A stretch of DNA of 64,000 nt from an uncultured Candidatus Saccharibacteria bacterium (lineage in GTDB: Bacteria > Patescibacteriota > Minisyncoccia > Phycocordibacterales > SBAW01), in NCBI GenBank assembly GCA_964420015.1, contig CAYQPO010000001.1, positions 87,048 to 151,047 on the forward strand. The letters run 5' to 3'. The notes beneath the pieces are model-generated. The model worked only from the letters and a program-made list of their open reading frames with translations. It searched no databases and was not told where the DNA came from. Both the position numbers and the translations under genes were made by a program. Positions 1 to 59,512 of the stretch are shown here, one piece after another. The stretch's first letter is position 1; each line of letters starts with the position of its first letter.

Positions 1-507
1 CGAATCATAGCTCTGCTGCTCATACTGTTCGCCGATGTTGCGGCGGCGGCGGACAAAAAGGACGTCGACGAACTCATCCAGTTTGTAGTGAACAAAAAAC
101 AGCCCGGCATAAGATACATGCACTACCACGGCCGCGATTTCGTCAGCATTGCGGGCGTCACCTTTGACCACTACACAGCAGGAGGGATCGAGCGTGTTAC
201 AGTGGTCGTTCCCTACTTTGCCCCAAACGCACGCGGCGTTTTGGTACGAGTGCCTTGGTCAACACAAAAAGACGTGGTCATTATGCTCTCGAAGGTTCCT
301 TCAGACAAAACCGACTTCTACTCGAGTAGCGGTCCACGTTTAGTGATGACAGACGACAATAGCGACGGCACACTCGACCAATACGCCGTTGGTGATGCAG
401 CGACAGTTGAGATAGAGCAAAGTGACAAGAAGCCAAGCGCCGAGGAACAAACCTTTTACGATAAGACCATAGAGCGACTGCTCGCCCTCTATCGATCACT
501 CAACTGA
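1..507 (+). CDS. hypothetical exported protein (5'-partial; frame is open to the window start, N-terminus is hydrophobic)
   Basis: ORF 88..507 continues in frame to position 1 (…RIIALLLILFADVAAAADKK…). No recognisable motif. Confidence 0.4.
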   Translation, partial: RIIALLLILFADVAAAADKKDVDELIQFVVNKKQPGIRYMHYHGRDFVSIAGVTFDHYTAGGIERVTVVVPYFAPNARGVLVRVPWSTQKDVVIMLSKVPSDKTDFYSSSGPRLVMTDDNSDGTLDQYAVGDAATVEIEQSDKKPSAEEQTFYDKTIERLLALYRSLN

Positions 508-563
508 AGTTGAACGCCGCGCAACAGGAGTTACGCGGCAATTTTTTATCCCACCAACCGCAA

Positions 564-580
564 CAAAGGTCAGACCTATG
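564..580. repeat. REP-like palindrome CAAAGGTCAGACCTaTG (one mismatch; overlaps the RAYT stop codon), preceded by CCACCAAC
   Basis: Read directly from the sequence. Same core as the copies at 1064, 1270 and 54220. Confidence 0.6.
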
Positions 581-1256
581 CAACAACAGTTTTGAAAGAA
601 GTCAAAAGTTCTTCCAAATCATTCTGGTTTTTTAAAAATTCTGGCGTCTCTTCGTATGCGATCACTGCCCGTTCGGGTCTAGGTCCGATTGAGTAGTCGT
701 AAAAACTGGAATACGGGTAGTTAGATAGAAAACTTCGAGCAGCGTCGTGACGCGTGATGCCCTCTTTCTCCCAGCCAGGAAATCGTATAGAGAGTGCATT
801 GAGATGAACGTACGCAAAAATATACCTGAAATAAGCCTCATTGCCGACGAGCCGGCTTTTAAATGCCCCTTGTGCCAAAATCCCGCTGTGGTTATACAAA
901 AGATTAAAGTACATGGAATACGCCGTGAGAACTTTTCGCGTAAATTTAGTTATTCCATTTTTACTTTTTTGCCTAACAATAAGATGGAAGTGATTGGGCA
1001 TAAGAGCATAGGCAAATAAATCTACTAAAGATTTTGTCGGCTTTTCTTCCAAAAATATCGTGGCAAAGGTCTGACCTTTGTATTTTCGCAATAAGTCACG
1101 CAGATTTATGGGCTCTTCTGTATTCGCCAAATGAAGTAAAAGCATAAAACGCCGGTGATCAGCGTCGGTTTTAAAAATTTCTTGCTTATGAGCTCCACGG
1201 TTAAAAAGATGGTAGACCTCACCATCTACAAAAGGGGCATCTCTGAGCATTTCCAA
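576..1256 (-). CDS. REP-associated tyrosine transposase / IS200-like HUH transposase (COG1943-like)
   Basis: HUH motif LMPNHFHLIV. Overall similarity to the transposase IS200-like fold (…RRFMLLL…AYALMPNHFHL…YVHLN…). Flanked by REP palindromes. Confidence 0.7.
   Translation of the reverse strand: MEMLRDAPFVDGEVYHLFNRGAHKQEIFKTDADHRRFMLLLHLANTEEPINLRDLLRKYKGQTFATIFLEEKPTKSLVDLFAYALMPNHFHLIVRQKSKNGITKFTRKVLTAYSMYFNLLYNHSGILAQGAFKSRLVGNEAYFRYIFAYVHLNALSIRFPGWEKEGITRHDAARSFLSNYPYSSFYDYSIGPRPERAVIAYEETPEFLKNQNDLEELLTSFKTVVA
1064..1080. repeat. REP palindrome CAAAGGTCTGACCTTTG embedded in-frame in the RAYT gene (encodes …YKGQTFA…)
   Basis: Perfect 17-bp palindrome, identical to the copy at 1270..1286. 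Confidence 0.65.
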
Positions 1257-1269
1257 ATAGTACCACCAA

Positions 1270-1286
1270 CAAAGGTCTGACCTTTG
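1270..1286. repeat. REP palindrome CAAAGGTCTGACCTTTG 14 bp upstream of the RAYT start, preceded by CCACCAAC
   Basis: Perfect palindrome. Confidence 0.65.
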
Positions 1287-2378
1287 TCATCCTACTAAGC
1301 GGGCGATGTCGTGGGCGGTCACAAAGACCATCAGTACAATAAGGAGCGCCAAGCCCGCAAGCGAGAGCATATTGACCAACCGCACCGAAACTGGTCGACG
1401 CAATAAGCCTTCGATGCCGATGATCAGCAGTCGACCGCCATCGAGCCCAGGAATCGGCAAGATGTTGATGACTGCCAAGTTGATCGAGATCAGTGCTACC
1501 AAAAACGCCCCTTCAGAAAAGCCTTGTTTGACCGCCGACGCCCCTACCGAAGCAATCCCCACCGGCCCAGAGACCCCGCCAAGCCCGTGGCCTTGCACCA
1601 AGCCGCCCAAAAATACACCCAGACCCTGCACGGTGCCCACAACTAAGTCTTTTGCGGTGGCCGCTCCCTCTAGCAGCGCAAGGTGGATTGGTAATTTCAA
1701 AATACCTACATCGCCGAGTTCAACCCCTATTGCCTTACGCCCGTCGACCAACCCCTCGACTCCTTTGGCAAGAAAAGTTTTTTCATCCCCGTTTCGCAAG
1801 ACGGTGATGATCACGCTCTCGTCTTGATGCGCTGTAATAAAATTACGCACCACGTCTGCCTGTCGACTGTTGTTAAGAGTGCGCACATCGAGTTGTGCAT
1901 CTGCCGTTTGGAGCTTTTCCACCACATCACCGGGGGCGAAGCCCGCCGCCTCGGCGGGCGAGCCGGGCAACACACCCACGATTGTGGGGCGGGCATTGGT
2001 CACCGGGCCAAGGCCCTGATAGTCGGCCGAAGTGGGCACGCCGACCATATAGGCCGCGCTCAAAATGAGCCAGCCCACGAGGAGGTTCACCACCACTCCG
2101 GCAGCAATCACCGCAGCTTGAGTCCAACGACTCTTTTGGCTCATGCTTCTTGGGCCGGCCTCTACAGCATCTTCGCCAAAGATTTTTACATAGCCGCCTA
2201 CAAGCAGCAGGTTAAACGAGTAGAGGGTCTCCCCTACCCGCACACTAAGGAGCCTCGGCGGAAATCCGATCGAAAATTCATCAACCCGTATACCGGCGAG
2301 CTTGGCCGCAACAAAGTGCCCCAACTCGTGTACGAGTATCAAGGCAATCAAGCAAACAATAAAAATCAGCAGCGACAT
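1287..2378 (-). CDS. rseP: RIP site-2 zinc metalloprotease (M50) with PDZ domain
   Basis: HELGH zinc motif near the N-terminus. Multi-TM with a PDZ-like middle region. C-terminal LDGG motif. Confidence 0.85.
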   Translation of the reverse strand: MSLLIFIVCLIALILVHELGHFVAAKLAGIRVDEFSIGFPPRLLSVRVGETLYSFNLLLVGGYVKIFGEDAVEAGPRSMSQKSRWTQAAVIAAGVVVNLLVGWLILSAAYMVGVPTSADYQGLGPVTNARPTIVGVLPGSPAEAAGFAPGDVVEKLQTADAQLDVRTLNNSRQADVVRNFITAHQDESVIITVLRNGDEKTFLAKGVEGLVDGRKAIGVELGDVGILKLPIHLALLEGAATAKDLVVGTVQGLGVFLGGLVQGHGLGGVSGPVGIASVGASAVKQGFSEGAFLVALISINLAVINILPIPGLDGGRLLIIGIEGLLRRPVSVRLVNMLSLAGLALLIVLMVFVTAHDIARLVG

Positions 2379-4243: not shown

Positions 4244-5257
4244 TTAGCGCTTGGCAACGATCGCTTTTTTGTAGGTGTCGAGATGATCGAGCGCAATACC
4301 CGAGCCCTTAGCCACGCAATAGAGCGCGTCTTCGGCCACTTGAGCCTTGACCCCGGTGCGGCGCAGCACTAACTCGGCAAAGTTGCGCAAGAGTGCGGTA
4401 CCCCCAGTCATGGTTATTCCGTTGTCGATAATATCGGCCGCGAGCTCGGGCGGTGTGTCTTGGAGCACGTCGCGGATGGCCTTGATCATCTCGCGGAGCT
4501 CTTTGCCCATTGCTTTAACAATATCGTTGGTCCGGAGCTCTGCCGAGCGCGGTAACCCCGTGATAAAATCGCGGCCGCGCACCACCATAAGTAACTCTTC
4601 TTGCACCGGTACCGCAGAGCCGATACCGATCTTGACGTCTTCGGCAGTCTTGTCGCCAATAGCCAAGTTGTAAGTCTTTTTAATATAGTCGGCAATCGCG
4701 TGGTCGAGTTTGTCGCCAGCGCACTTGACGCTCGTCGAGGAGACTATTCCCCCGAGGCTGATCACTGCCACATCGATGGTGCCACCGCCAATGTCGACCA
4801 CCATGTGCCCGCGCGCCTCTTGGATAGGGATCCCCGCGCCGATCGCCGCGAGCACCGACTCTTTTACCACATACGCATTCTTGGCCCCCGCGCGGATCGC
4901 AGCCTCAACGACCGCGCGCCGTTCAGTCGAGGTTACGCCGGTGGGTACACTCACCATTACATCTGGTTTAAACAATTGCCAGCGACCAACAGCCTTGCGG
5001 ATAAAGTAGCGCAACATCGCCTGCGTCACGCGGTAGTCGGCGATCACCCCGTCGCGCATGGGGCGGTAGGCCACGATCTCGCCAGGCGTGCGCCCGATCA
5101 TCTCTTTGGCCTCGGCGCCTACGGCCAAGATGCGCTTATCAATTTCAGAGATAGCAACCACACTTGGCTCGTTTAAAACCACCCCCTTGCCCGGCACAAA
5201 CACCAGCGTGTTTGCGGTCCCGAGGTCTATGCCTAATTTGGGGGTCAAGAGTGCCAT
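4244..5257 (-). CDS. mreB: rod-shape determining actin-like protein MreB
   Basis: IDLGTANTLV, NEPSVVA and DIGGGT motifs. 337 aa. Confidence 0.9.
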   Translation of the reverse strand: MALLTPKLGIDLGTANTLVFVPGKGVVLNEPSVVAISEIDKRILAVGAEAKEMIGRTPGEIVAYRPMRDGVIADYRVTQAMLRYFIRKAVGRWQLFKPDVMVSVPTGVTSTERRAVVEAAIRAGAKNAYVVKESVLAAIGAGIPIQEARGHMVVDIGGGTIDVAVISLGGIVSSTSVKCAGDKLDHAIADYIKKTYNLAIGDKTAEDVKIGIGSAVPVQEELLMVVRGRDFITGLPRSAELRTNDIVKAMGKELREMIKAIRDVLQDTPPELAADIIDNGITMTGGTALLRNFAELVLRRTGVKAQVAEDALYCVAKGSGIALDHLDTYKKAIVAKR

Positions 5258-5296
5258 CGCTCTGGCATTGTACCCCTCTAAAACTTCGAGGACAAA

Positions 5297-5578
5297 TTAG
5301 GCCTCTTTTTGATGATTTTTAGGGTTGATCTCCCACCAAAACTTTTTAGAAAAGTCTTTGGCATCGTCGCAGACGCGTTTGAGGTAGTAAATGTCCTGCG
5401 TCGGCATTGCGCTCATGAGCCTTGCCATTCGCGCGATGGTGAGTGGCGGGTAATCATCTTTAATGCGGCCGGGGTTGAGCCGCTCGATGAAGTATTTCAT
5501 CAATTCGCCGCGCTCGGTCTGCTTGTCTTGCTTAGAGCGCTTGGAGGGCTCGCGCATATGTTTGCCTATATGCTCCAT
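5297..5578 (-). CDS. hypothetical small protein
   Basis: 93-aa ORF divergent from def. No motif recognised. Confidence 0.35.
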   Translation of the reverse strand: MEHIGKHMREPSKRSKQDKQTERGELMKYFIERLNPGRIKDDYPPLTIARMARLMSAMPTQDIYYLKRVCDDAKDFSKKFWWEINPKNHQKEA

Positions 5579-8312: not shown

Positions 8313-10004
8313 CAGAGTTGGACGAACGGAGGCGAAAACCTCCGTTTCGTCTTTATCCGCCTCACATTTTTCAGGTTCGAACGCAGGGTTTTCTGACTTT
8401 GCCGTAAGTAGGCCGTTGATTATGGCGGAATATAAACTTGCGTGGCGAATACTAGCTTTTCTGTCCTTTATCGTTAGGTTCGAACCGGTCTCGATCAAGG
8501 CCTCTCTTTTGGCGACAAAGTCATCGCTCAAAAATACTTTTTCAATTCCGACGGCTAGACTAAAAGCTTTCTGCGCTTTGGCGATTCTGGTTAAGTCTAC
8601 CCGGTCGTAAGCGGCTAATTCCATCTCGAGTATGTCGATCTCTGCTTTGAACACTGTTCTCGCGTTTAGCATGTCCTGGTCCGTCAGCAATCCTCTCGCA
8701 CGCATCAGGGTGAGTTCCCGATCCTCACCGCGCTTCTTTTCGAGAGTCTTGGTCAATGATGCCTTTCTTTCAAATTCGTCCTTCCTTTCAGTAGTCACCA
8801 GACTGTCTAGATTTTTTATGCACCAATCAGCAAGACTTTGCGAGATGGAGAGATTTTTCTTGAAGTGATCAGCCAAATACTTATCAATGTGTTTTTCGTC
8901 CAGCGCACCTTCCTTGCAGTCAGGATGTTGTTTCTTTGTACAATGGTAGAACGCATAATGGAGGTACTTTGGATTCTCCATTCGATCAATACGTACACCG
9001 CACCCCGGACAGGTTGTCTTTCCAGGATAGGAGAATTTCTTTTTACATGTAGGACAGATTAACTGGTACTTGGGATCGGCGGTGATAGTGCCGCCACAAC
9101 CTCCACACTCTGAAACAATTTTGTATGGGAACAAATCTTTATTTAATGATGGTCGAGGACGTCCACGTTTACCGAGTATTTTTTGATTTTCCCAGTATTG
9201 TTCCTCTGTGATCATTCTCGGTATTTCTTTGTTGAGCTCGTGTCTTCTACCGTCTTTGGTGACAAAAAAGCCGGCATATACAGGGTTTCGAAGCAATGTG
9301 TCTATTACGTATGAAATAACCAGCTTCTTTCCACCCTGTTTTTTATGAAGCACCGTTCGGATGCCCATCTCATCATTCGCAGTCCTCATTATTTGTCGTG
9401 CAGAATACTTTCGACTGTTAAACATCAAGAGAAGTTGTTTTATGAGACCGTAACGGTTCTTATCGACTAACCAGCCGCGGTCTCCGGGTTCTTTCGACAT
9501 ATCGTTTAGAAAACCTATCGGAGCGACACCATTGGGATAACCTTTTTCTTGCTCACGTGTTCGTAAGCCTCGTTTTGTATCAACGCTCAAGTCCCGAAGG
9601 TACTGGTTAGCAATACCGAGTTCGACTGCCATGATGAGCACATTGTCGCTAGGATGATAGCTGCGGTCGAATGTTTGAATATGTTTAATTACACCTTGTT
9701 GAAGCATCCAGCTAACAGTGCCACCATCGATTGGATTGCGTGATAATCGATTGAGTTTCCATGAGATGATGCCTTCCGCCTCCCCTCGACTTATTCTCTC
9801 GACCATCTGCGTGAACAATGGTCTGCCAGGTGCCTTTGCGGATTTTGCTTCTTCAAACTTACCAACGACCTCTAGTCCGAGACGAGAAGCAAGCGCTTCT
9901 AGTTCGCGGATTTGATCAGGTAAAGACTGGACTTGTTTATCCTCAGTGTCCGTCGACTTTCGAACATACATGAAGTATTTTATTTTTTGATTTTCATTTT
10001 TCAT
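8301..10004 (-). CDS. large serine recombinase (resolvase/invertase-type integrase with Zn-ribbon and coiled-coil)
   Basis: N-terminal YVRKSTDTEDKQVQSLPDQ catalytic Ser region. ~568 aa with CxxC…CxxC ribbons (CGGCGGT, CPTCKKK, CPGCG). Start taken at MKNENQ. The 3' end overlaps tRNA-Asn. Confidence 0.8.
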   Translation of the reverse strand: MKNENQKIKYFMYVRKSTDTEDKQVQSLPDQIRELEALASRLGLEVVGKFEEAKSAKAPGRPLFTQMVERISRGEAEGIISWKLNRLSRNPIDGGTVSWMLQQGVIKHIQTFDRSYHPSDNVLIMAVELGIANQYLRDLSVDTKRGLRTREQEKGYPNGVAPIGFLNDMSKEPGDRGWLVDKNRYGLIKQLLLMFNSRKYSARQIMRTANDEMGIRTVLHKKQGGKKLVISYVIDTLLRNPVYAGFFVTKDGRRHELNKEIPRMITEEQYWENQKILGKRGRPRPSLNKDLFPYKIVSECGGCGGTITADPKYQLICPTCKKKFSYPGKTTCPGCGVRIDRMENPKYLHYAFYHCTKKQHPDCKEGALDEKHIDKYLADHFKKNLSISQSLADWCIKNLDSLVTTERKDEFERKASLTKTLEKKRGEDRELTLMRARGLLTDQDMLNARTVFKAEIDILEMELAAYDRVDLTRIAKAQKAFSLAVGIEKVFLSDDFVAKREALIETGSNLTIKDRKASIRHASLYSAIINGLLTAKSENPAFEPEKCEADKDETEVFASVRPTLLLG

Positions 10005-10451
10005 AAAACAAAAGTGGAGCAACAACGTAGTTCTTAATCGCCAGACCAAGAATGTTGTTGCCCCGCTTTTATCCTCAAAGCCAGAGTTTGAGCGTCTTGG
10101 TCTGGCACTATCACTATGGTCCACACATACACGAAAGCAACTGCTGATACTTGGCCCGTGTGTCAGACCCCCCCTTACCCCCACGGCTTTTTGCCTTAGA
10201 GGATCGCCGTGCCCTTATCCCGTTTTCTCTCGGAGGGCGACTTGGTTTCAGTTATCCTGCCGGTTAGCGCAAGCGCCCCCGGTGGTGAACATGACTGCGT
10301 TAGAAACCTCTCGCTACACCGCAATCAGTGGTTGGCTTTCTGCCGATACTCGGCCATCCCTGTACCGTGGGATCACGGAGCCAGCCCTATGCCTGTTTTG
10401 TTTTTACAAGCCCCGCATAGGGTCTCACCCCCAGGGCTTGAAGAGGCGCGA

Positions 10452-10661
10452 TCACGCGCTGGTCTTTGGGTCGAGGGATTTTCCGTCCCTCGCATCAACG
10501 AGTGAATATTCTTCACTCGCTCGTGCGAGAGCAGTAACTCCTAGTCTTGTAAGACGCAGCAAAGAAGCGCCGATTTTTTCGGCTTGTTCATCGGTCAGCG
10601 AGATACCCTTATCACGAAGAATGATCTCCTTTAGTTCTTTTTTGGCTTCCTGCGATAACAT
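10452..10661 (-). CDS. hypothetical small helical protein (island-borne)
   Basis: 69-aa ATG ORF, MLSQEAKKELKEIILRDKGISLTDEQAEKIG… No family assigned. Confidence 0.3.
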   Translation of the reverse strand: MLSQEAKKELKEIILRDKGISLTDEQAEKIGASLLRLTRLGVTALARASEEYSLVDARDGKSLDPKTSA

Positions 10662-11224
10662 GAGAAGCCCTCTCTTTTCCTGACGGGTTCCAGACGCTAC
10701 AAGTAGCGACCCGCCAAGAAAGCAAAGGGCTTCTCGGTGTGCGTCTGGAGTTACGCCATATCAAAAAGACCCTACACACGACGTGCGGGGTCTTTTTGGC
10801 AATGCCAAAAGAAGAGCCACCACGCGTACGTGACGGATCCTTCTTTTTTCATTGAGTTGCCTCAAAAGTTGCTCTAAGGAGGTTCGGTTGCGGCTTTGAT
10901 TTTTGCCGTTTACCGATGGTCTTTGATTGTAAAAGAGCGGGTAGATTCATTCTACCGGTCCGTAGAGGACCGTCAATCGGGGTGGTGTGGGTCCGCAGCA
11001 AAATGCTAAAATCTTATTGTGGGCCGGTAAGGCACACGAAAATTGAATAAAGCGCCTAAACCAGCGGCAACGCTGGCATGGCAAAAGAAGTCCGAACAGA
11101 CATAGAGAACCCGTCATGGGGGTGTCTGTTCGGCCATATCGGGAAACCGGTATGCCGGCGCAAGCCGGGACCCGTGGCGGGTTCTCTGTGTACCTCCCGG
11201 GGTTATTGGCTAAGCCAAACCTCT

Positions 11225-53483: not shown

Positions 53484-54209
53484 ATGAAATCCCAATATGT
53501 GTTGCCCATTACTATCGTGATCGCCGGTGCGCTCATTGCTGGAGCGGTGTTCTGGAGCGGCAAAAATTCTACCCAAGGCATGGCGCCCAACACTAACCCC
53601 AACGGCTCTATCACTGCCCGCGCCTATACCCCCGGCCAAGACCACATTTTGGGCAACCCTAACGCTGCAGTAAAAGTGGTTGAGTATATGGACTTGGAGT
53701 GCCCACACTGCAAGGTGTTTAACACCACGATGCACCAGATTATTGCGTACTACGGCAAGAGCGGCCAGGTGGCCTGGGTACAGCGACCCTTCCCGCTGGC
53801 ACAGATCCACTCTAAAGCCCCGCAAGAGGCACAAGCCGCCGAGTGCGCCGCAGCCCAAGGCGGCGACACAGCCTACTTCGCTTACACCGACAAAATCTTT
53901 GAAATCACTCCCTCGGACAATGGCCTCGACCTCGCACAACTCCCGACGGTGGCACAGCAAGTTGGCTTGGATGTAGCTAAGTTCAACGACTGCCTCTCTA
54001 AAAACACCTACGCTCAAAAAGTTACCGACAGCTACAACGAAGCGCTCTCCTACGGTGCGCAGGGCACGCCGTTTAGCCTCGTGATGGTCGGGACCGAAGC
54101 GGTTGCGCTCTCGGGCGACCAACCCTACGACAGCATGCGTGCCGCGATCGACGCCGTCCTCTCGAGTACCGGCCAGCCGAGCACGACTGCCTCAACCACG
54201 GCTCAATAG
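53484..54209 (+). CDS. DsbA-like thiol:disulfide oxidoreductase
   Basis: N-terminal TM. CPHC active site. Thioredoxin fold. Confidence 0.75.
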   Translation: MKSQYVLPITIVIAGALIAGAVFWSGKNSTQGMAPNTNPNGSITARAYTPGQDHILGNPNAAVKVVEYMDLECPHCKVFNTTMHQIIAYYGKSGQVAWVQRPFPLAQIHSKAPQEAQAAECAAAQGGDTAYFAYTDKIFEITPSDNGLDLAQLPTVAQQVGLDVAKFNDCLSKNTYAQKVTDSYNEALSYGAQGTPFSLVMVGTEAVALSGDQPYDSMRAAIDAVLSSTGQPSTTASTTAQ

Positions 54210-54219
54210 TCAAAAAATA

Positions 54220-54236
54220 CAAAGGTCAGACCTTTG
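54220..54236. repeat. REP palindrome CAAAGGTCAGACCTTTG 11 bp after the DsbA-like gene stop
   Basis: Identical core to the REPs flanking the RAYT at 0.5-1.3 kb. Confidence 0.65.
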
Positions 54237-58933: not shown

Positions 58934-58947
58934 TTCGCATATGCGAA
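58934..58947. repeat. palindrome TTCGCATATGCGAA (operator-like) upstream of the PaaX-like gene
   Basis: Perfect 14-bp palindrome. Second copy at 59499..59512 within a ~24-bp direct repeat (GGAAAAtTTCGCATATGCGAA). Confidence 0.6.
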
Positions 58948-59498: not shown

Positions 59499-59512
59499 TT
59501 CGCATATGCGAA
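59499..59512. repeat. second copy of palindrome TTCGCATATGCGAA downstream of the PaaX-like gene
   Basis: Perfect 14-bp palindrome. Confidence 0.6.

Follow-up and report, generated by a model that had tools for sequence, protein, structure and literature searches.

A putative hairpin endonuclease gene of Patescibacteria with its flanking palindrome repeated in frame inside the coding sequence

Repetitive extragenic palindromic (REP) sequences and the REP-associated tyrosine transposases (RAYTs) are the best-known case in which a domesticated transposase co-evolves with its DNA targets. The 64,000-nucleotide (nt) stretch of contig CAYQPO010000001.1 analyzed here, hereafter called the window, derives from an uncultured Candidatus Saccharibacteria bacterium and contains a RAYT-like gene with a peculiar layout, wherein one short palindrome lies before the start codon, over the stop codon and, in frame, within the coding sequence. 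Why does this gene use the same DNA palindrome that brackets it to encode part of its own protein, and is the internal copy a recent arrival or a maintained feature? A preliminary description of the window had proposed that a REP inserted into the gene and preserved the frame. By comparing the gene with its relatives, we find that the three-hairpin layout (5′ of the gene, at codons 57-63 and over the stop codon) is a family trait in which each lineage has its own palindrome, and that an internal copy, where there is one, always matches those of the flanks. The gene and its three hairpins in the window are as follows.

576..1250, minus strand: Y1 HUH (RAYT-like) gene, 224 amino acids; ATG at 1250 (alternative TTG at 1256), TAG stop at 576-578.
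1270..1286, no strand assigned: 5′ flanking palindrome, CAAAGGTCAGACCTTTG on the gene strand; hairpin of -6.6 kcal/mol as single-stranded DNA (ssDNA).
1064..1080, no strand assigned: internal in-frame palindrome, CAAAGGTCAGACCTTTG on the gene strand; codons Y57-A63, with KGQTF as residues 58-62.
564..580, no strand assigned: 3′ palindrome, CATAGGTCTGACCTTTG on the gene strand, with one mismatch; overlaps the last codon and the TAG stop.

A pattern search of the entire 64 kb for CAAAGGTCWGACCTTTG, allowing up to two mismatches, returned exactly four sites (564-580, 1064-1080, 1270-1286 and 54220-54236), which are the four copies and coordinates given in the preliminary description. The number expected by chance is 0, and none of 100 dinucleotide shuffles yielded a match. 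A looser search (three mismatches in 15 nt) added two further sites only, both at chance level. When folded as ssDNA, the copies form stems of 7-9 base pairs (bp) with 3-nt loops (-5.6 to -7.3 kcal/mol), and the 3′ copy, which reads CAAAGGTCAGACCTATG and carries one mismatch, reaches only -2.1 kcal/mol. The 5′ copy is located directly after the rseP stop codon (1287-1289). By homolog alignment the start codon is more likely the ATG (1250) than the TTG (1256), and the copy lies 19 nt before this ATG and 13 nt before the TTG, which corrects the 14 bp reported at first.

The other two copies at the gene overlap the reading frame. The internal copy encodes Y57-K58-G59-Q60-T61-F62-A63, confirming that a third copy lies in frame within the coding sequence, in the KYKGQTFA region. 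At the 3′ end, the gene strand reads gCA TAG GTC TGA, and a perfect palindrome would instead give gCA AAG GTC TGA, or A-K-V-stop. A single change in the palindrome (gCA TAG versus gCA AAG) has thus produced the TAG, as was noted before, and this mismatch moves the stop two codons earlier; the palindrome would provide a stop in any case. Many homologs end in ...KV*, from the AAG GTC TGA of the palindrome, and so the palindrome normally supplies the stop codon of these genes.

To place these arrangements in a family we draw on a word-index search that recovered 566 relatives, whose names, where given, are Adlerbacteria, Parcubacteria, Paceibacterota and Minisyncoccia, and on an exhaustive search in which clusters formed at 50% identity numbered 115 with E ≤ 1e-30 and 2,744 with E ≤ 1e-10. 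DNA was analyzed for 81 loci (designated by three-digit L numbers), all with homologs of the gene, of which 80 come from metagenomes and the last (L046) from a metagenome-assembled genome (MAG) of Kaiserbacteria. Flank matching was scored on the 72 loci with enough flanking DNA, and the internal copy was scored on 60 gene copies with matched flanks, where a positive has zero to two mismatches in 15 nt.

In this sample a lineage-specific palindrome recurs just upstream of the start codon and at or over the stop codon. The 5′ and 3′ palindromes match each other in 57 of 72 loci, with the equivalent 5′ hairpin at a median position of -50 from the start and the 3′ palindrome beginning within the open reading frame (ORF) in 33 of 60 relatives. 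There are 44 distinct 15-nt cores, built on a constant frame of CAAGG-N5-CCTTG, and AGG-N5-CCT is present in 46 of the 57. An internal copy is found at nt 156-182 in 29 of the 60 gene copies, and it appears in 23 distinct versions that share the same codon phase in 26 of 29 cases. Its sequence is exactly that of the flanks in 21 loci and differs by one or two mismatches in a further 9, while gene copies that lack it are at background level (four to seven mismatches), so that the distribution is bimodal. At the codons homologous to KGQTF, other lineages carry their own perfect palindromes, such as CAAGGACGGTCCTTG, ACAAGGTTCAACCTTGT and CCATAGGCGAGGCCTATGG, and at one locus (L143) the internal palindrome is 33 nt long with 16-bp arms, and it spans 11 codons. 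As a control for specificity, a gene's own palindrome is found in its flanks at 30 of 32 loci, whereas clearly different foreign palindromes match in 4 of 682 tests. This disparity indicates that the inner and outer hairpins evolve in concert, a family-wide co-variation that the preliminary description had overlooked.

Might the peptide, rather than the DNA, be what is conserved? By this account K-G-x-T-F would be kept for structural reasons, its codons would be self-complementary by chance and the flanks would be unrelated. G59 is indeed invariant among the 32 closest homologs, and the motif makes up the tight turn that joins two helices. However, such a coincidence would have to produce exact identity with the flanks in 21 loci and a palindrome extending over 11 codons in L143, while foreign palindromes match in only the 4 of 682 tests. 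Moreover, glycine is encoded from the AGG core in 28 of the 29 internal copies, and clades that lack the palindrome mostly lose both that glycine and the motif. From the sequences, the peptide motif appears to be shaped by the constraint on the DNA rather than to impose it, and we find the coincidence hardly credible.

Two further observations concern the internal site. Three loci (L150, L184 and L176) belong to a clade without a cognate internal copy and carry another, AT-rich internal palindrome, TTTGAAAnnnATTTTCAAA, at approximately nt 188-245, slightly downstream of the usual position. At L189, the internal peptide IGLPY suggests a palindrome type differing from that of the flanks. Such palindromes may be relics of former versions of the hairpin.

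We then asked whether the internal copy is old. In an AlphaFold model built on the homolog alignment (pLDDT 90), two extra short helices (residues 50-56 and 62-68) lie between helix A (29-41) and the strand that precedes the HUH motif (76-83), and KGQTF is the turn between them. By profile coordinates and this model, the N-terminal part is approximately 24-29 residues longer than canonical Y1 profiles. The insert is therefore real relative to canonical Y1 enzymes, and to this extent the proposed insertion of about 20 amino acids between the RRF-like helix and the HUH motif stands. It does not stand as a REP insertion into this gene, as the segment is ancestral. The preliminary description had itself named homolog alignment as the comparison that could overturn it, and all 31 close homologs (53-97% identity) contain the KYKGQTF segment. 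Diverged relatives with different palindromes carry the internal copy at the same nt 156-182 and in the same codon phase (26 of 29), which likewise argues that the segment is ancestral.

A recent event, in which a mobile copy landed in this RAYT gene with the frame kept and about 20 amino acids added, would readily account for the identity of the internal copy to the flanking palindrome and for a region that is extra relative to canonical Y1 profiles, and REPs within tnpA_REP genes are documented for another subclass. Yet it would not explain the segment in 31 of 31 close homologs, nor the same nt position and codon phase in 29 relatives with 23 different palindromes. Furthermore, the insert is approximately 75-90 nt long, of which the palindrome makes up only 17 nt, and it is a confidently modelled two-helix element. 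We consider a recent insertion very unlikely; judged from these alignments, the inner copy is an old, maintained feature. Conservation of the in-frame copy among homologs, which had been posed as a question, holds for the 29 of 60 relatives that have it at the same site and does not extend to the remainder. In a neighbor-joining tree, clades that have the internal copy are scattered among clades that lack it, a pattern that fits an ancestral internal copy followed by several losses.

The protein itself has the hallmarks of a Y1 HUH nuclease. Its HUH motif is N86-H87-F88-H89, of which N86, H87 and H89 are invariant in 32 aligned sequences, and the catalytic tyrosine, whose presence the preliminary description had asked to be checked, is Y147 within the motif YVHLNA, where Y147, H149 and N151 are likewise invariant. 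The model places the HUH motif within strand 87-94 and Y147 within helix 138-150. The best match of this model among PDB structures (Foldseek) is 4ER8, in which the REP-associated transposase of E. coli is complexed with a REP hairpin (E = 1.5e-6), followed by the ISDra2 and IS608 TnpA proteins, with matches ranging from E = 1.5e-6 to 1e-3. A sequence search of solved structures gave nothing significant, and fold search alone ties the protein to 4ER8. The Pfam Y1_Tnp profile (PF01797) is passed marginally (24.9 bits versus a cut-off of 23). The Y motif is of the class 2 type, Y-x-x-x-N-P, with a family consensus of YVHLNP and an alanine at the proline position in the window protein. The original designation as a REP-associated tyrosine transposase fits the fold, the best structural match and the flanking palindromes, but the score for the RAYT equivalog falls below its cut-off and the palindromes have no GT[AG]G foot.

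Perfect symmetry and the strictly constant AGG-N5-CCT spacing in 46 of 57 cores could also be features of a double-stranded operator, in which a dyad is bound by a dimeric protein (possibly through the enzyme's own C-terminal helical domain) to bring about auto-repression with no chemistry on ssDNA hairpins. Such an operator would sit where the 5′ copy does, at a promoter location between the upstream gene and the start codon, and loop orientation would be irrelevant to it. On the other hand, copies are also present over the stop codon and inside the coding sequence, arms reach 13-16 bp in some lineages, and solo copies occur far from the gene, some of them within other genes. REPIN-like inverted doublets (as in REPINs, larger imperfect palindromes) lie beside several of the genes (L146, L154, L189 and L191), as do short tandem arrays, although no such larger palindrome was seen by eye around the internal copy in the window. 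These features do not suit an operator, and the strict conservation of the HUH and tyrosine residues argues for a nuclease function. We regard the operator explanation as unlikely.

Taken together, the locus is probably a REPtron-like unit of a large, Patescibacteria-specific branch of Y1 HUH enzymes (RAYT/TnpA_REP-like), wherein the gene for a putative ssDNA hairpin endonuclease is stably located and bracketed by its cognate palindrome. We place high confidence in the architecture and moderate confidence in the mechanism, which we picture as follows. The enzyme would recognize the hairpins on ssDNA, with the conserved AGG/CCT stem as the likely contact, as the fold and the examples of IS608 TnpA, ISDra2 TnpA and TnpA_REP suggest. 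IS608 TnpA and E. coli TnpA_REP cleave and rejoin DNA next to hairpins, and this enzyme may do the same beside its own. The internal copy may stem from an ancient in-frame hairpin insertion that became the surface helix-turn-helix insert. Because the internal copy has tracked more than 20 changes of palindrome type, it must be either selected as a recognized site or overwritten by conversion. In the first case, selection would keep it identical as a substrate or binding site of the enzyme; in the second, short-patch conversion among hairpins 200-500 nt apart, through enzyme-mediated strand exchange or template switching, would do so. Rare solo copies, such as that at 54220, could be products of the same activity.

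A bolder version of this idea is that the in-frame hairpin is a functional cis-element, such that the enzyme binds or cuts the hairpin in its own coding sequence, either for self-control at the level of DNA or mRNA or for programmed rearrangement between the three hairpins. Rather than a tolerated passenger, it would then be a selected dual-coding site, at once a peptide turn and a DNA hairpin, that co-evolves with enzyme specificity across much of Patescibacteria. We offer this only tentatively.

Several findings weigh against the REPtron-like interpretation. Approximately half of the family does not have an internal copy, which was either lost or never present, and so this copy is dispensable rather than essential. 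No consistent loop orientation was found among the three copies across lineages, which a strand-specific mechanism on ssDNA would not readily explain. For every family member, binding and cleavage of hairpins are predictions from the fold, and the NCBIfam RAYT equivalog model (NF047646) is failed at 26.4 bits versus a cut-off of 80. The motifs NHFH, xQG and YVHLN[PA] resemble those of Quentin subclass 2.1, which is reported without REPs, and the palindromes are perfectly symmetric (consensus CAAGG-N5-CCTTG) and lack a GTAG/GTGG foot. Finally, the palindromes are barely dispersed, with one solo copy in the 64-kb window and a density far below that of classical REPs.

That solo copy and the sequences that adjoin the flanking hairpins complete the set of related features in the window.

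54220..54236, no strand assigned: dispersed solo palindrome, intergenic; arms reach 10 bp (TACAAAGGTC/GACCTTTGTA); -7.3 kcal/mol, z = -6.
551..558, no strand assigned: CCACCAAC, TTGGTGG on the gene strand; follows the 3′ palindrome after a 5-nt spacer.
1263..1270, no strand assigned: second CCACCAAC, abutting the 5′ palindrome and sharing its first base (1-nt overlap).

The solo copy had been described as terminating a DsbA-like gene. It overlaps no ORF and begins 10 nt past the stop codon (54207-54209) of a CPHC thioredoxin-fold (DsbA-like) ORF at 53484-54209. The internal copy (gene strand, 1056-1080) and the solo copy (54214-54236) share six extra bases, AAAATA-CAAAGGTCAGACCTTTG, and the flank copies share the TTGGTGG tail instead. 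The shared AAAATA hints that the solo copy could have been derived from the internal copy, or the reverse. As stated earlier, CCACCAAC accompanies both flank copies; its spacing, however, differs (1-nt overlap versus 5 nt away). This tail is peculiar to the window genome, and a relative with the same palindrome (L123) does not have it. The two copies may reflect local duplication of a palindrome-plus-tail unit, and GGTGG (gene strand) within 1263-1270 is a likely ribosome-binding stretch, to judge from its sequence.

Copies abut the rseP stop codon, follow the DsbA-like stop codon by 10 nt and cover the gene's own stop codon, locations that raise the possibility that the hairpins act in RNA as 3′-end stabilizers, terminators or translational attenuators, with the gene association being secondary. 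REPs are known to act in this way (PMC3733652), and such roles could coexist with a REPtron-like unit. Nevertheless, no copy is followed by a T-tract, both loop orientations occur, and neither the lineage-specific co-variation with a HUH gene nor the internal copy would be explained. A promoter and terminator scan of window positions 400-1500 gave nothing above shuffle level and called none of the palindromes as terminators, and an Rfam search of 300-1600 gave no match. As a sufficient account, RNA-level function seems quite improbable.

A GC-rich hairpin with a T-run (window 516-548; GCCGCG...CGCGGC AATTTTTTA) lies directly past a plus-strand ORF that ends at 507. From its sequence it looks like the intrinsic terminator of that ORF and bounds the hairpin-gene-hairpin unit on its outer side; it was absent from the list of the consensus terminator scan (400-1500). 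One other perfect palindrome in the window, TTCGCATATGCGAA, occurs at 58934-58947 and 59499-59512, 565 nt apart (two matches versus 0.37 expected, with two reached in 5 of 100 shuffles), and these two sites may be an operator pair.

Is the gene nonetheless mobile? It sits in a slot between rseP and proS, its upstream neighbor being the M50/RseP gene, and an autonomous IS200-like insertion sequence (IS) could have a similar appearance. The hairpin-gene-hairpin segment of about 735 bp would then be the mobile unit, with the flank hairpins as end recognition structures and solo copies as scars. The size and subterminal-hairpin layout suit this proposal, as do the differing genomic contexts of different clades, the palindrome-plus-TTGGTGG tail at both ends and an inverted gene at L192, which carries a paralog in the same rseP-proS slot but in opposite orientation (its RseP and ProRS are 37% and 57% identical to those of the window). 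The evidence from individual lineages does not. Two exact proteins (P0011 and P0082) each keep one genomic context on the more than 20 contigs, drawn from different samples, in which they occur. The genes downstream of both follow one order (approximately 200 amino acids, approximately 700 amino acids, L10 and L12), and this synteny is common to lineages whose identity to the window protein is only some 55-64% in each case. The rseP-proS slot that the window shares with the distant relative L192 is likewise consistent with a stable location. Paralogs on a shared contig have diverged (at L133, matches to the query are 40% and 34%), and each has its own palindrome. In addition, the Y motif is Y-x-H-x-N and not the Y-x-x-x-Q of IS200, and no relatives were found in viral contigs. 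An autonomous IS is thus improbable in our estimation, and on sequence grounds the gene appears to be resident and vertically inherited, unlike a proliferating multi-copy IS.

The inverted gene at L192 possibly reflects an inversion between flanking palindromes; diverged paralogs are present there at 4638-5319 and 9889-10678, with their own palindromes TACATAGCCCCCGCCTATGTA and GCAAGAACSGTTCTTGC. Neighbor clustering over the 81 loci revealed no conserved partner gene, with partial synteny to L10/L12 about 4-5 kb downstream in a subset. In Adlerbacteria, LAGLIDADG homing-endonuclease ORFs occur a few kb downstream of L10/L12 (L203:19466-19909, L207:13120-13563 and L210:9675-10529), and their presence and length vary between samples.

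Dispersal of the palindromes is limited in relatives as well. More than 400 nt from the gene we count eight cognate palindromes in 446 kb (1.8 per 100 kb), half of which are within 1 kb of the gene, although this density is approximately 40 times that of the foreign-palindrome control (0.044 per 100 kb). The claim that the REP family is dispersed in this genome is therefore weakly upheld, by one extra copy in 64 kb, and the relatives reach only about 1.8 per 100 kb. A scan of genome contigs (596 Gb, approximately 280 chance hits expected) matched the window palindrome at no fewer than 119 loci. Among the matches listed, most are single chance hits in unrelated phyla, Patescibacteria are over-represented (at least 18 loci), several Patescibacteria MAGs are matched on two contigs, and half of the palindromes in Patescibacteria are intergenic versus 12 of 101 elsewhere.

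The same palindrome also lies in frame in other genes of Patescibacteria MAGs (L076:6504-6520, L097:2193-2209, L115:3252-3268 and L027:5518-5534). It encodes TKVRPL in TsaD-like proteins (two MAGs, same position), KGQTF in an MnmA-like protein and KGLTF beside GQTL in a Dus-like protein, and by sequence these tsaD, mnmA and dus copies look like intragenic REPs of the kind known as Rickettsia palindromic elements (RPEs). In Bacteroides and Phocaeicola (L003, L015, L017, L048, L063 and L109), a near-copy such as CTAAGGTCTGACCTTAG accompanies the exact palindrome, in most cases offset by 22 nt. The pairs form a distinct family of tandem palindromic repeats that has the AGGTCTGACCT core in common with the window palindrome but no neighboring homolog of the window gene. 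The exact 17-mer is also present at six or more Neisseria loci (L004, L018, L020, L099, L113 and L121), which suggests a conserved gene segment or a genus repeat rather than chance.

One candidate event at the internal hairpin was dropped. A contig from essentially the same organism (L122) is 100% identical to the window from 1046 downward, and its positions 1-170 differ from window 1047-1215 at 27 sites in 170 nt, stop codons included, with the boundary at the internal hairpin. Recombination or hypermutation bounded by the hairpin was rejected, given the position at a contig end, the stop codons and two further sequences (L001 and L002) that match the window exactly; the divergent stretch is probably a poor contig end.

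These loci amount to a natural experiment, in which dozens of lineages have different hairpins on the CAAGG-N5-CCTTG frame and three copies lie within 0.7 kb, one of them also encoding part of the enzyme. The co-variation could be used to derive rules of protein-hairpin specificity, and the loci could inform on whether a HUH enzyme can act upon its own gene and on the concerted evolution of very short repeats. They also extend the occurrence of hairpin-flanked Y1 genes to bacteria that are streamlined and host-dependent, and to a 2.1-like class reported without REPs. If the tentative cis-element proposal is true, this would be a self-targeting domesticated transposase with a recognition code readable from the CAAGG-N5-CCTTG variants. 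Should the internal copy be no more than a passenger, the family would be a modest addition to known intragenic REPs.

How does this family compare with established systems? REPtrons in which each RAYT has its own REP are established (PMC6006769), and REPs inside ORFs, REPs that give stop codons and REPtrons in species lacking a REP family have all been described (PMC3733652). The closest precedent is subclass 2.4 of TnpA_REP, for which in-frame REPs within the tnpA_REP genes are called a ‘unique feature’ (Quentin 2018, PMC6006769). There, too, a cognate REP lies inside the ORF with the frame intact, in a peripheral region of the protein. Subclass 2.4, however, is found in Cyanobacteria and Bacteroidetes, carries REPs with GT[AG]G or double feet and has another insertion site (PMC6006769). 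In the Patescibacteria family, by comparison, the copy is N-terminal to the HuH motif (57-63 versus 86-89) at a fixed codon position and phase, and inner and flanking copies co-vary through no fewer than 23 versions of the palindrome. The N-terminal position of the copy, together with the motifs AQG/FQG and YVHLN[PA], places the family outside subclass 2.4.

By motifs the family resembles subclass 2.1, TnpA_Y1/TIRYT (Bertels group 1; Di Nocera 2013, PMC3733652), whose members have NH[YF]H, FQ and Y[IV]HLNP motifs, approximately 238 amino acids and a C-terminal extension (PMC6006769 Table 1). The NHFH, [LF]xQG and YVHLNP motifs and the length of approximately 225-240 amino acids fit by eye, in a comparison made by motifs only. 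Subclass 2.1 is reported to be without REP-like structures, or to have long terminal inverted repeats carrying GGGGWSAS, whereas the flanks here are short self-palindromes, in which GGGGWSAS was unseen by eye, with no pattern search run.

Canonical REP hairpins have a 5′ GT[AG]G foot (PMC6006769). With E. coli TnpA_REP (RayT/YafM; 4ER8; subclass 2.2), the family shares the Y1 HUH fold, a gene that appears to be low-copy, cognate hairpins and a lineage-paired palindrome. The window protein differs by its low identity (approximately 13%), by the additional two-helix element and by approximately 70 more C-terminal residues of helical structure. Its palindromes are perfect, short and without a GTAG foot, and they are scarcely dispersed when set against the hundreds of REPs in E. 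coli. The TnpA proteins of IS200, IS608 and ISDra2 have in common with this family the HUH and tyrosine chemistry, subterminal hairpins, a unit of about 0.7 kb and structural similarity. In contrast to these elements, the family is not multi-copy in relatives, has a class 2 Y motif and a longer protein, and its gene fills the element and overlaps the 3′ hairpin.

RPEs, like intragenic REPs, share with this gene the tolerance of in-frame palindromes as surface peptide segments. They are 100-150 bp in length and, to our knowledge, have no associated HUH gene, whereas the host ORF in the window is that of the enzyme presumed to act on the repeat. Our literature searches found no earlier description of co-variation between inner and outer palindromes. 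In-frame REPs within RAYT genes are known, and among the features that set this family apart are the fixed N-terminal site, the Patescibacteria clade and the co-variation of the internal hairpin with those that flank the gene.

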